Source: Escherichia phage EK5
Strand: one strand, 5' to 3'
Sequence record: PQ805429.1
Length of the DNA: 64,000 nt
In this document: piece after piece, positions 4,199 to 41,979 of the stretch
How the letters are laid out: each line of letters starts with the position of its first letter
Numbering within the stretch: position 1 is the first letter of the stretch
Notes under the pieces: generated by a model
The model's input: the letters and a program-made list of their open reading frames with translations, nothing else
Told to the model about the DNA's origin: nothing
Databases searched by the model: none
Translations under genes and position numbers: made by a program

Positions 4199-4524
4199 TT
4201 GACAGTAATACATTTAGGACTTCAAATGGAAGTGAAATAAGTCCCGCTGAAGTAATCAATCGGCATAGAAGGCAATTGATCATCCATTCCTATTTGTATT
4301 ACTGGTTGGATGACCCTATCTGGTCTGATGATAAATGGCAACAAGTTGCTAATGATCTAGTGGAGCTGCAAGCTCTGTATCCAGAGCCTACCGGAGTCTT
4401 TGACAATGAGTTCAAAGATTGGGATGGTTCTACAGGAATGCATCTCCCACACAATGAGGCTGTTGCTTGTATGGCGACAGCTGTTTACAGGATTCATAAA
4501 GATATGAACCATGAAGTGCTCTAA
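4195..4524 (+). CDS. hypothetical protein with NAD-ligase domain-Ia-like motif
   Basis: 109 aa; HSYLYYWLDDPIWSDDKWQQVANDLVELQALYPEP resembles the LigA N-terminal Ia pattern [29 protein letters not shown]..HPE. Confidence 0.4.
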   Translation: MIDSNTFRTSNGSEISPAEVINRHRRQLIIHSYLYYWLDDPIWSDDKWQQVANDLVELQALYPEPTGVFDNEFKDWDGSTGMHLPHNEAVACMATAVYRIHKDMNHEVL

Positions 4525-4696
4525 ATGTGAAGGAACAAACCTTCATTTAAGTAACAAGATTATCAGAGAGCTTGCCAAAGGCTCTCCAACCAAAGGGAAG
4601 AACAAACGATTTACTAACGTCAGGGTTTATACAGCAATCTGTAAAGACTGTTTAACTACTGAGTGTCATTACGAAGAAATTGGAGAGCGTAAATGA
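4511..4696 (+). CDS. small Cys-rich protein
   Basis: 61 aa; CSKCEG...CKDCLTTEC. Confidence 0.4.
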   Translation: MKCSKCEGTNLHLSNKIIRELAKGSPTKGKNKRFTNVRVYTAICKDCLTTECHYEEIGERK

Positions 4697-40255: not shown

Positions 40256-40288
40256 AGGTTGTCCTCCTTGTTATATGTAGACAAAGAA

Positions 40289-40297
40289 TATACATTA
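40289..40297 (-). promoter_or_regulatory. TAATGTATA motif (minus sense)
   Basis: 34 nt upstream of ATG 40255, just downstream of the capsid terminator. Confidence 0.45.
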
Positions 40298-40319
40298 CAC
40301 ACTGGCTTGTATAGGTCTT

Positions 40320-40350
40320 AAAACGAAAAAACCCCGCCCGAAGGCAGGGT
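40320..40350 (-). terminator. rho-independent terminator after capsid genes
   Basis: Minus strand CCCTGCC-TTCG-GGCGGGG followed by TTTTTTCGTTTT. Confidence 0.75.
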
Positions 40351-40356
40351 CTAGTT

Positions 40357-40869
40357 TTAAGCAGGTGTTACACCAGTAAAAGTGCATGTTGCATTGATGG
40401 ATGGGTCAGCTGTCAAACTTGCTTGAACAGTAACTTCGCCACTTGCAGCAGCATCTAAGGTTAACGCACCAGCGGCGCTTACTGTACCGGCTTCTGTAGG
40501 AGTTACAACAAACGTGTAATCCGCAGCAGCAGAGTTAGTTACAGTAAACATGGTAGTGAAATTAGTGGAGGAACCACCAGTTTTACCCGTAATTGGACCC
40601 TTAGCTACAATAGTAGGAGCAGGAGCAACAATTTCAGAAATGGTTGCTGTACCAGAAACACCTTCTAAAGTTGCAGTAATGGATACATCAGTGGATTGAG
40701 ACGCACTCGGAGCAGTATACAAACCCGACTGAGTGATAGAACCACCTCCTGTCACTGACCAAGTAAAGCCAGTTGTTTCGGTAGAACCATCACTTTTCTC
40801 CGCGCTTGCAGTGAACTGCCGAGTAGCCCCTGTCTCTAGACTTGCTAAAGACGCAGGGCTAACAGTCAC
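40357..40869 (-). CDS. Ig-like (BIG2) domain, likely C-terminal extension of capsid protein by -1 frameshift
   Basis: Annotated ORF begins with GTG and has no RBS; frame is open upstream and is the -1 frame of the capsid gene. Confidence 0.5.
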   Translation of the reverse strand: MTVSPASLASLETGATRQFTASAEKSDGSTETTGFTWSVTGGGSITQSGLYTAPSASQSTDVSITATLEGVSGTATISEIVAPAPTIVAKGPITGKTGGSSTNFTTMFTVTNSAAADYTFVVTPTEAGTVSAAGALTLDAAASGEVTVQASLTADPSINATCTFTGVTPA

Positions 40870-40880
40870 ACTGTCTACTG

Positions 40881-41939
40881 TTACGCCGCCACCTTTCCCG
40901 CAGCAGTGAACAGAACGCCAGAAGCATACGGGTTGCGGTGACGCAGACCAACTTCCATTTCAATCATCCACTTCTCGTAAGAACCATCTTTAGCCAGTTC
41001 AGTACGTTTCGGAGCACGCAGAACCATCTGAGTCCAGTCAGCGCTACGGAAGAAGTAAACTGCATCGGTAGGCATCCAACGGTTAACGATGATTTTGTAG
41101 CTCTGGCCCAGCGGGTCAGTGATGCTGTTAACTTCGTAGATGAACTGCTTGGTGTTCTCAAAGATACGCTTACGTGAACCCTGAGTATTTTCTTGCAGAC
41201 CAGCAAAGATCTTAGCATGAGCCGGGTTAATCATGATGATATCTGCTTCAGAACCAGCGGTATACAGTTGCAGAGTCATATCAAAGATATCAGCTTCGTC
41301 GAAACCAATGTTAGTGGTCGGGTTAGAAGCATTCTGTGCAACTTTAACAGTTACTGCACCAGTGTCCGGGTCAGCAGGACCATTCTTGGTCTTGTCAACA
41401 ACGCCACCAGCCAGACCACCGTGAGCACACAGGAACTGGAATGCACCAGTCTTACGAGCTGCATGGGTGTCATTCAGACCAACAACAGCAGGATCAGTTG
41501 CAGAGTTAGTCAGATACTGGTCAGCCAGAACGTCGGTACGAGCCTGACCGGACAGAAGGATTTTCTCGAGGTCACGCTTGATCTCTTTACCTTTCTTCTC
41601 CAGCTGATACATCAGTTCACGACCACGACCGTAGTTAGCGGTGGTGTTAGCAGTATCAGAAACACGAACAACCTTACGCAGAATCTGAGTAACGTTAGAT
41701 TTGATAACAGTCGGTTTCATTTCACCGTCTTCAGCACGAGAGCCTTCGACGTGTGCGTTATTACCGTCAACGCTTGCCAGTGCATCGGTCTGCCAGCTAA
41801 AGATAGTCTGGTTGATAGACTCTTTACCGGTCATAGATACGAACGGGGTATCCTGAGGGGACAGAACAGAAATCCAGTTAGCAAAAGAAAGTTTTTTACC
41901 ATTCTGGTCATACGATACAAATAAAGTTGGATTAGCCAT
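40881..41939 (-). CDS. major capsid protein
   Basis: 352 aa; follows scaffold gene; strong RBS; strong terminator downstream. Confidence 0.65.
   Translation of the reverse strand: MANPTLFVSYDQNGKKLSFANWISVLSPQDTPFVSMTGKESINQTIFSWQTDALASVDGNNAHVEGSRAEDGEMKPTVIKSNVTQILRKVVRVSDTANTTANYGRGRELMYQLEKKGKEIKRDLEKILLSGQARTDVLADQYLTNSATDPAVVGLNDTHAARKTGAFQFLCAHGGLAGGVVDKTKNGPADPDTGAVTVKVAQNASNPTTNIGFDEADIFDMTLQLYTAGSEADIIMINPAHAKIFAGLQENTQGSRKRIFENTKQFIYEVNSITDPLGQSYKIIVNRWMPTDAVYFFRSADWTQMVLRAPKRTELAKDGSYEKWMIEMEVGLRHRNPYASGVLFTAAGKVAA
40893..40899 (-). other. candidate -1 ribosomal slippery heptamer G GGA AAG
   Basis: In capsid zero frame as G|GGA|AAG, five codons before stop; -1 frame continues KGGGVTVDSV into the Ig-like ORF. 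Confidence 0.5.
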
Positions 41940-41979
41940 GTTATGTTAGCTCCTATACTATTAATAATTAATTTGTCGA

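Follow-up and report, generated by a model that had tools for sequence, protein, structure and literature searches.

The capsid locus of EK5

The window (the whole 64,000-nt stretch of DNA that was analysed, from Escherichia phage EK5; sequence record PQ805429.1) is that of a Kuravirus, a podovirus of the phiEco32/SU10 type, with 99.5% nucleotide identity to YW01 and SkaterBoy. Based on nucleotide comparison, its capsid locus is 98.6% identical to that of phiEco32. The gene order around the major capsid protein (MCP) gene is that of Kuravirus (portal, scaffold, MCP, adaptor), with a SU10_adaptor match downstream. The following features lie at the locus:

41950..41954, minus strand: Shine-Dalgarno sequence AGGAG of the capsid gene, 10 nt 5' of the ATG (read from the sequence)
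40881..41939, minus strand: MCP ORF in the zero frame, 352 aa, 38.7 kDa, HK97 fold, SU10_MCP (PF17236, E=9e-77; SU10 capsid protein 7z45, E=9e-236)
40893..40899, minus strand: slippery heptamer G_GGA_AAG in the X_XXY_YYZ register (GGA is codon 348, AAG codon 349)
40357..40893, minus strand: -1 frame extension, 178 codons plus TAA at 40359..40357 (sequence; 86% identity at 99% coverage to the YF01 long isoform)
40870..40892, minus strand: Gly/Ser-rich linker and first Ig-domain residues (GGGVTVDS), translated in the -1 frame only and 5' of the nominal GTG
40645..40878, minus strand: Big_2 domain, extension residues 6-83 (PF02368, 24.8 bits against a gathering cut-off of 22.8, E=2e-5)
40360..40620, minus strand: second, putatively Ig-like module, extension residues 92-178 (repeat alignment; profile search; phrog_13745 "Ig domain containing protein")
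40808..40873, minus strand: stable RNA hairpin within the Big_2 coding sequence (-33.5 kcal/mol, z=-4.6, 0/200 shuffles)
40319..40352, minus strand: intrinsic terminator 3' of the extension (10-bp stem, UUCG loop, T-run)

The MCP zero frame ends GCG GGA AAG GTG GCG GCG TAA, with the TAA at 40883..40881. Direct reading of these letters confirmed two claims of an earlier note made from the sequence alone (the sequence-only reading), namely that the capsid ORF ends in TAAGKVAA and a stop, and that G GGA AAG lies there in zero-frame register. Its statement that lambda G/GT uses the same heptamer was also correct: lambda G has an identical G_GGA_AAG in the same register, with the same CTGC 5' context, five codons before the stop, and slips at ~3.5%. 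The lambda products differ in being tail assembly chaperones that are absent from virions and carry no Ig domain.

The heptamer alone carries no weight, because GGGAAAG occurs six times in the window and 7.2 occurrences are expected, which is no excess over chance; heptamer frequency was dropped as evidence. Its context in the capsid gene, unlike the heptamer alone, is beyond chance. Within the MCP gene, G_GGA_AAG is the only in-register X_XXY_YYZ sequence, and the capsid site is the only one of the six GGGAAAG sites in the window that is in register within a long ORF and has a long -1 extension. G_GGA_AAG has been reported to be highly shift-prone in E. coli.

The -1 frame extension and its point of initiation

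The -1 frame proved to be open from the heptamer through KGGGVTVDSV into a 170-aa Ig-like ORF, as the sequence-only reading had described, and it continues for 178 codons to the TAA. Past the slip it reads GGT GGC GGC GTA ACA GTA GAC AGT GTG (GGGVTVDSV), which puts it in frame with the 170-aa GTG ORF (40869..40357). The -1 frame of the MCP gene contains 44 stops in 352 codons; it opens ~4 codons 5' of the heptamer and is then open for 178 codons, a run with P ~5e-11 at the -1 stop rate of the MCP gene and seen in 0 of 20,000 shuffles. The fusion product is computed to comprise MCP residues 1-349 and 178 further aa (527 aa, 55.6 kDa), and the short form has 352 aa and 38.7 kDa. The strong terminator that had been claimed to follow the Ig-like ORF is present, with a 10-bp stem, a UUCG loop and a T-run spanning 40352..40329, and is annotated at the equivalent place in SU10, Paul and Privateer.

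The Big_2 match already starts 3 codons 5' of the GTG, before any start codon. A Pfam search of the second module (residues 92-178) returned no match. A profile built from eight repeats of this module matched T5-type tail tube proteins in their C-terminal domain (8hqz, E=4e-4; pb6, E=0.012), a domain that, from T5 work, we take to be Ig-like. The module recurs 3-4 times in the extensions of Paul and OliverMaurmann, and modules also align with E20-1. An AlphaFold (AF2) single-sequence model of the extension was all-beta, but its pLDDT of 56 made it unusable, and the repeat-profile search was used instead.

In most GenBank records, the capsid protein and the Ig-like ORF are two separate genes, the latter named "Ig domain containing protein." The records of YW01, SkaterBoy_Bas90, phiEco32 and ES17 list, apart from the capsid protein, a second protein labelled "Ig domain containing" or "hypothetical," and in some cases "hemagglutinin." The Paul and Privateer records have a joined CDS, annotated "Frameshift at GGGAAAG."

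The majority annotation would fit a 170-aa Ig-like ORF that is a separate gene translated from GTG 40869 into a free decoration or accessory protein, with the heptamer incidental; a possible GTG start is indeed present, and the SU10 structure paper, in which gp10 is a product in its own right, discusses that it might be a minor capsid protein of low affinity. We nevertheless consider a separate gene improbable. The sequence-only reading had stated that this ORF begins with GTG and lacks an RBS, and no Shine-Dalgarno sequence was found within 20 nt upstream of GTG 40869 (gcggcgtaacagtagacagt), unlike the AGGAG before the capsid ATG. The GTG is also base-paired in the stem of the -33.5 kcal/mol hairpin. 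It is absent in six relatives (Paul, NJ01, TH34, OliverMaurmann, KBNP1711 and E20-1), with GTA or ATA instead in relatives, and a protein initiated at the next start would lack part of the Big_2 domain: in the -1 frame, no start codon comes before extension codon 34 in Paul, NJ01, TH34 and OliverMaurmann, before codon 47 in KBNP1711 or before codon 61 in Privateer. Big_2 homology and protein-level conservation reach upstream past the GTG to the heptamer, with linker indels in relatives that are multiples of 3 and a Ser retained through an AGT<->TCC codon switch; the heptamer itself is invariant, whereas the zero-frame tail is variable.

Because the Big_2 match starts earlier than the GTG, the Shine-Dalgarno sequence is absent, the GTG is held in a stem and is not conserved, and the linker is conserved, these comparisons support translation of the extension from the slip site and not from the GTG. 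The tryptic peptide GGGVTVDSVTVSPASLASLETGATR, predicted from the fusion, has an N-terminus that is not obtainable from a GTG-initiated protein. The evidence says that the capsid and Ig-like ORFs are one gene with two products, contrary to the closest database records.

RNA structure near the heptamer

The hairpin at 40808..40873 starts 19 nt after the heptamer, and its conserved core, from 40869, starts 23 nt after it. Across relatives, 94.5% of cells were paired, compared with 29-51% in slid controls, and three pairs changed on both sides. The covariation score, over ~5 independent lineages, was 0.169, which is not above the 0.173 of the -1 slide control. The alignment points to real conservation of pairing that is partly covarying, and we do not claim the covariation as proven.

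The sequence-only reading had advised looking for a downstream stimulatory RNA structure. At the classical spacing of 5-9 nt, no significant structure was found (z=-1.3 for the 113 nt after the heptamer; z=-0.09 for the 86 nt around it); the search did yield the strong hairpin, but at 19-23 nt it is too far away for a classical stimulator. The 30 nt upstream of the heptamer contain no Shine-Dalgarno-like element. Because both this element and a structure at classical spacing are lacking, slip efficiency may be low; frameshift cassettes often have one or the other but do not strictly need it. The SU10 paper described a stem with the "heptamer in the loop" (CUGCUGC/GYGGCGG). This stem appears in the MFE fold, with 0 pairs changed on both sides; it was rejected as a stimulator since it has no two-sided changes and would be melted by a ribosome on the heptamer.

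The hairpin (40873..40808) might instead modulate the ratio of long to short isoform at a non-classical distance and share ancestry with the core of the larger structures that follow the weaker G_GUA_AAG or A_AAA_AAG sites of sister lineages, a proposal that we put forward tentatively and regard as rather unlikely. If it is true, the whole SU10_MCP family would share a tunable frameshift cassette for capsid decoration, with an RNA element that is at the same time the coding sequence for the first Big_2 strands.

Conservation, proposed mechanism and significance

All 17 Kuravirus and Privateervirus genomes compared, with MCP identities as low as 57%, keep the GGGAAAG heptamer unchanged, and 16 of the 17 have an open -1 frame. 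At 57% MCP identity (Privateer), the extension is a non-homologous I-set and Big_2 pair. In ManiMatter, the heptamer and the -1 frame persist though the zero-frame tail and stop differ. Extension length across genomes ranges from 178 to 545 aa through gain and loss of whole Ig modules with the frame kept, which argues for ongoing selection on the extension. Sister lineages have G_GTA_AAG (as in Aeromonas phage 4_4572) or A_AAA_AAG at the equivalent position, with structures 5-8 nt downstream, and the A-site AAG is always kept. In Salmonella phage 7-11, a second MCP paralogue is extended in frame by Big_2, and many long in-frame MCPs were among the protein-search matches. The in-frame paralogue, the long in-frame MCPs and the other heptamers are independent ways of reaching one end.

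A capsid-Ig frameshift is already known for this phage group and has been published for SU10/phiEco32, Privateer and YF01. Privateer gave two capsid bands on SDS-PAGE, and MS identified the minor form in virions. The SU10 paper described GGGAAAG slippage "as in phiEco32," and the YF01 paper described a long isoform for the whole Kuravirus-like group; papers and records on relatives cite the phiEco32 long product as being made.

SU10 itself departs from this pattern. In the sequence deposited for it, an insertion of 1 nt closes the -1 frame. The SU10 cryo-EM capsid, the one high-resolution Kuravirus capsid, has no extra density for Ig domains, and the YF01 authors noted that the long-isoform band is missing from SU10 SDS-PAGE; the closed frame accounts for both. 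Since SU10 is viable without an open frame, the long isoform is dispensable. SU10 MS covered 50.3% of the 527-aa fusion (22 peptides) and 78.1% of the 352 aa (23 peptides); these data argue only weakly for a fusion and do not require Ig peptides, because 50.3% of 527 holds no more residues than 78.1% of 352.

We conclude that a programmed -1 frameshift at GGGAAAG very probably produces a minor, surface-displayed capsid-Ig long isoform; comparative evidence and the literature on the phage group support the fusion of the capsid protein to Ig-like domains that the sequence-only reading had proposed. The present analysis showed the slip signal and its register, an open -1 frame, a domain that runs on across the nominal start, and conservation; detection in virions comes from the literature on close relatives. 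Most ribosomes would stop at the TAA at 40883..40881 and release the 352-aa HK97-fold capsid protein. At G_GGA_AAG, a minority would shift backwards by one base, with tRNA-Gly moving from GGA to GGG and tRNA-Lys from AAG to AAA, and would then read the Gly-rich linker, Big_2 and the second, putatively Ig-like module up to the stop just 5' of the terminator, giving the 527-aa, 55.6-kDa product. The long isoform would co-assemble as a minor capsid subunit with its Ig-like domains exposed on the outside of the head. If it resembles that of lambda G/GT on the same heptamer, slip efficiency may be a few per cent, which would correspond to tens of copies among roughly 715 subunits. Display on the head surface, where the domains were said to be "decorating the head," is what we infer from this arrangement, and the Ig domains may serve in weak adhesion.

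The extension could also be a decaying remnant that is no longer usefully expressed in EK5, as in SU10, which has lost the open frame at no cost to viability and whose capsid is uniform; the absence of a classical stimulator would agree with such decay. We find this very improbable, as the frame is intact over 178 codons in the window and open in 16 of the 17 genomes, and the turnover of whole modules with the frame kept indicates selection. Transcriptional slippage by RNA polymerase at GGGAAAG, in place of ribosomal slippage, would be expected to yield an identical protein, and sequence alone cannot separate the two mechanisms. For RNA polymerase to slip productively, long homopolymer runs are required, usually of at least 7 identical bases, and here the runs are G3 and A3; X_XXY_YYZ with an A-site AAG is the signature of tandem tRNA slippage, and the alternative heptamers of sister lineages all retain that AAG. 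A transcriptional origin of the long isoform is therefore extremely improbable, and ribosomal frameshifting is the preferred reading.

Among known systems, the long isoform of other Kuravirus phages (phiEco32 gp11-gp12, YF01 gp8, Paul gp009/gp010) involves the same gene, heptamer, register and near-stop position, and a homologous extension. Aligned over 99% of its length, the EK5 fusion shares 86% identity with the 892-aa long isoform annotated in YF01. The EK5 extension is a short, two-module version of 178 aa, like those of phiEco32 and ES17, and the extensions of Paul and YF01 have 545 aa; there is no essential difference. The Proteus phage Privateer shares the MCP family (57% identity) and GGGAAAG, but its heptamer directly abuts the stop and its I-set and Big_2 pair is not homologous to the EK5 extension. 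Salmonella phage 7-11 (also ECO319P1 and APT65) has the same MCP family and a minority long capsid form with C-terminal Big_2 domains; these phages differ in using a second gene, an in-frame fusion behind a terminator, without recoding.

The sequence-only reading had compared the fusion with T7 10A/10B. T3 and T7 gene 10A/10B likewise yield a minor C-terminally extended subunit by -1 frameshifting late in a podovirus major capsid gene, so that the analogy holds for how the system works; T3 gene 10 is the closer parallel, however, since its extension is Ig-like and that of T7 10B is not. Both differ from EK5 in capsid family and slip site, with T7 using a G_GUU_UUC-type heptamer, and in T7 a terminator element >200 nt away takes part in frameshifting. 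The EK5 cassette resembles T7 gene 10 in how it works, without belonging to that system.

The ES17 paper attributed mucin and heparan-sulfate binding to the tail fibre. This binding was rejected as a function of the Ig domains, since the authors credit the tail fibre and not the Ig-like domains.

For the EK5 window, the value of the finding is chiefly in annotation, and what is known about frameshifting is unchanged. Across the family, a single structural need has seen recoding come, change its signal and go: three heptamers are in use, in-frame paralogues occur, and SU10 has lost the open frame. Some Kuraviruses, ES17 among them, are candidates for phage therapy; Ig-like domains on the surface might adhere to mucus or glycans and might be immunogenic, and a C-terminus fed by frameshifting is a natural display site.

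Capsid gene, slip site and extension

The major capsid protein (MCP) locus is 99.5% identical to those of Escherichia phages YW01 and SkaterBoy_Bas90 and 98.6% identical to that of phiEco32; this identity indicates that the window belongs to a Kuravirus, a prolate-headed C3 podovirus. The order of portal, small ORF, scaffold, MCP, Ig-like ORF, terminator, adaptor and tail fibre is the same as in SU10, Paul and ShigP1. Between the Ig extension and the adaptor, the window has no HNH gene, just ~100 nt of intergenic sequence (40256-40356). An HNH homing-endonuclease gene sits between the post-extension terminator and the adaptor in MLP3 (L020 4682-5194), OliverMaurmann (L022 5524-6036) and a sister-lineage locus (L039 3222-3605). 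The features of the window locus are as follows.

Features of the MCP locus
41939..40881, minus strand: MCP ORF, 352 aa, SU10 major capsid protein family (PF17236, E=9e-77)
10-nt spacer before the MCP ORF, minus strand: Shine-Dalgarno AGGAG of the MCP gene, read from the sequence
40899..40893, minus strand: slippery heptamer G_GGA_AAG in the canonical X_XXY_YYZ register
40873..40808, minus strand: predicted stable hairpin in the Big_2 coding sequence, -33.5 kcal/mol, z=-4.6, 0/200 shuffles
40352..40329, minus strand: intrinsic terminator after the extension, with a 10-bp stem, UUCG loop and T-run

The MCP hardly differs from the SU10 capsid protein of known structure (7z45, E=9e-236), and its gene ends in GCG GGA AAG GTG GCG GCG TAA. 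Read from the heptamer's final G, the -1 frame begins GGGVTVDSVTVSPASL... and runs for 178 codons until the TAA at 40359..40357; the 170-aa ORF with a nominal GTG start lies in this same frame. The predicted MCP-Ig fusion is 527 aa and 55.6 kDa, versus 38.7 kDa for the short form. The sequence-only reading had proposed that a -1 frameshift at this heptamer produces the fusion; re-reading the ORFs, heptamer, -1 frame and terminator, we found all of its sequence statements correct, coordinates included, and signal context, conservation and the literature on the phage group support its interpretation.

By itself, GGGAAAG is not above chance in the window (6 occurrences versus 7.2 expected); the context of the MCP heptamer, however, exceeds chance. 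Only this one of the six sites is in register within a long ORF and followed by a long -1 continuation, and it is the sole in-register X_XXY_YYZ of the MCP gene. Within the gene, 44 stops interrupt the -1 frame over 352 codons; the frame opens ~4 codons 5' of the heptamer and thereafter is uninterrupted for 178 codons, a run with P ~5e-11 at the gene's -1 stop rate; 0/20,000 shuffles of the extension were stop-free.

Translation of the Ig-like sequence

The Ig-like ORF could be a separate gene started at its GTG; several independent lines of sequence evidence instead support translation from the slip site. The Pfam Big_2 match (24.8 bits; cut-off 22.8) begins at extension residue 6, three codons 5' of the GTG; no Shine-Dalgarno sequence was found in the 20 nt upstream of the GTG, which is also paired, and hence sequestered, in the hairpin at 40873..40808. 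Nor is the GTG conserved: the position is GTA or ATA in Paul, NJ01, TH34, OliverMaurmann, KBNP1711 and E20-1, where the earliest possible start falls at extension codon 16 to 47, within the Ig domain, and in Privateer the earliest possible start in the -1 frame is extension codon 61. The stretch from heptamer to GTG is conserved as -1 protein, with indels in multiples of three and a Ser retained through an AGT<->TCC switch. In ManiMatter, the heptamer and -1 frame are kept, whereas the zero frame has another tail and another stop position.

Tandem tRNA slippage on G_GGA_AAG, which a 2016 recoding review describes as highly shift-prone in E. coli, is the best-supported mechanism. We found no Shine-Dalgarno-like element upstream of the heptamer. 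The downstream stimulatory structure that the sequence-only reading suggested looking for is not evident at the classical 5-9 nt spacing, where folds were not significant (z=-1.3 and -0.09); a stable hairpin does occur, but 19-23 nt away, which is too distant to contact a ribosome sitting on the heptamer. RNAalifold recovered this hairpin (alignment A1 columns 64-123) from 11 distinct Kuravirus sequences, with 94.5% of cells able to pair versus 29-51% with the partner slid, and with three pairs altered on both sides. One of these three, columns 85-99, is U-A, G-C or A-U, pairing a synonymous Ser third position with the second position of a variable codon. We grade the hairpin as only a probable RNA structure because its covariation score is not above that of the -1 slide control, which matches it, and the sequences represent only ~five independent lineages. 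The published SU10 analysis names only a different structure, a stem with the heptamer in its loop; we rejected that stem as a stimulator, as it has no pairs changed on both sides and the decoding ribosome would melt it.

The frameshift has already been described for this phage group, so that the sequence-only reading was a correct rediscovery. The Privateer paper reports two capsid bands, with the minor form detected by mass spectrometry (MS), and names phiEco32 and SU10 as phages in which the frameshift product had been observed; the YF01 paper describes short and -1 extended isoforms, with the same heptamer, across the whole Kuravirus-like group. In RefSeq, joined CDSs with the note "Frameshift at GGGAAAG" are given for Paul and Privateer. 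According to the 2016 review, frameshift-fed C-terminal Ig-like domains recur on phage structural proteins (T3 coat, Lactobacillus A2, Listeria A118/A500). The likeness to lambda G/GT also held: in lambda G, GGGAAAG occupies the same register and lies five codons ahead of the stop. Lambda G (L028 456-466) and the Kuravirus MCP (window 40893-40903) even have a common 5' CTGC, with codons xCT GCG GGA AAG in both; this may be coincidence or reflect the E-site context. The codon before the heptamer is GCG in CsaP_009 too and GAG in Privateer.

Conservation and alternatives among relatives

GGGAAAG is unchanged and in register in 17/17 Kuravirus and Privateervirus genomes examined, and all but SU10 (16/17) have an open -1 extension, of 169 to 545 aa. 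Privateer and vB_CsaP_009 (57% MCP identity) retain the heptamer, with an I-set plus Big_2 pair as a non-homologous extension. Extension length differs, from 178 to 545 aa, by whole modules of ~87 aa gained or lost (Paul, OliverMaurmann and E20-1 compared with window 40357-40893); residues 92-178 of the window extension are one copy, and Paul has four. Searched as a profile, the module hits T5-type tail tube proteins at their C-terminal domain (8hqz, E=4e-4; pb6, E=0.012), which, from T5 structures, we take to be an Ig-like decoration domain. A distinct C-terminal domain (...TITLSAPITSEDTKV...KSGA), absent from the window, also contributes to the length differences. In TH34, whose record is flagged UNVERIFIED, the extension breaks off at 217 aa.

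In the deposited SU10 genome (L002 2600-2660), a 1-nt insertion (cactgtctactg versus cagtgtgactg) 20 nt 3' of the stop brings the -1 frame to a stop after 11 codons; the YF01 authors made the same observation. The SU10 MS table lists gp9 at 78.1% coverage (23 peptides) and "9+10" at 50.3% coverage (22 peptides). Because 50.3% of 527 aa (~265 residues) is no more than 78.1% of 352 (~275), the "9+10" identification needs no Ig-domain peptide, as gp9 peptides alone could account for it. Such a reading is consistent with the closed frame, the cryo-EM capsid, which is uniform and without extra density, and the YF01 authors' observation that the long-isoform band is missing from SU10's SDS-PAGE. The SU10 case shows that a phage can do without the long isoform under laboratory conditions.

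Distant phages of the SU10_MCP family reach an Ig-extended capsid protein by other routes. In Salmonella phage 7-11 (L004 2482-5258), a short MCP gene and terminator are followed by a second MCP paralogue, 585 aa in total, with an in-frame extension ending in Big_2; tandem MCP genes number two in ECO319P1 (L024 2992-5096) and three in APT65 (L007 1569-4427). These paralogues are a gene-duplication alternative to frameshifting. Many long in-frame MCP forms were also among the protein search matches.

Sister lineages without GGGAAAG have another in-register heptamer a codon ahead of the MCP stop. In each case the -1 frame continues open past the heptamer and codes for Ig domains without a credible start. 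Where the heptamer is G_GTA_AAG (57-68% identity), the gene ends in ...GTA AAG NNN TAA and the open -1 frame spans 89-170 codons, with I-set or Big_2: a 90-aa I-set/Ig_3 extension in Aeromonas phage 4_4572 (L006 4412-4690) and L017, two Big_2 domains (169 aa) in L014-L016 and L029-L036, and 170 aa in L037/L038 (2406-2924). A_AAA_AAG, the dnaX-type heptamer, occurs in L039/L040 (2409-3191; 66% MCP identity), with a 258-aa -1 frame and three Big_2 domains, and in L019 (around 4422-4555), whose extension has just 42 codons. The 2016 review lists G_GU among known P-site variants (T7 gene 10) and A_AAA_AAG as the classic E. coli heptamer. Structures in these lineages start 5-8 nt 3' of the heptamer and are better than shuffles (L014, z=-4.65; L015, z=-2.84; L037, z=-2.5; L039, z=-2.98); by our reading of sequences and folds, one outer-stem pair is compensatory between L014 and L015 (C-G to U-A). 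The 4_4572 record lists the ORF downstream of the heptamer as a separate 75-aa "tail protein." The G_GTA_AAG sites are probably unannotated frameshifts at a T7-like G_GU heptamer, and a narrow literature search found no paper describing the sister-lineage slip sites.

Copy number and significance

We infer the slip efficiency, surface display and role of the long isoform. Lambda slippage on the same heptamer is ~3.5% (YF01 paper), and the SU10 capsid has ~715 subunits; at lambda's rate, a capsid of this size would hold tens of long subunits. Phage-surface Ig-like domains are generally thought to give weak adherence to carbohydrates; in Kuravirus ES17, the tail fibre rather than Ig domains is credited with binding mucin and heparan sulfate. 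The practical value of the finding is that the closest database records still list the MCP and Ig-like ORF as two separate genes; what novelty remains is in the downstream hairpin and the alternative heptamers of the sister lineages.
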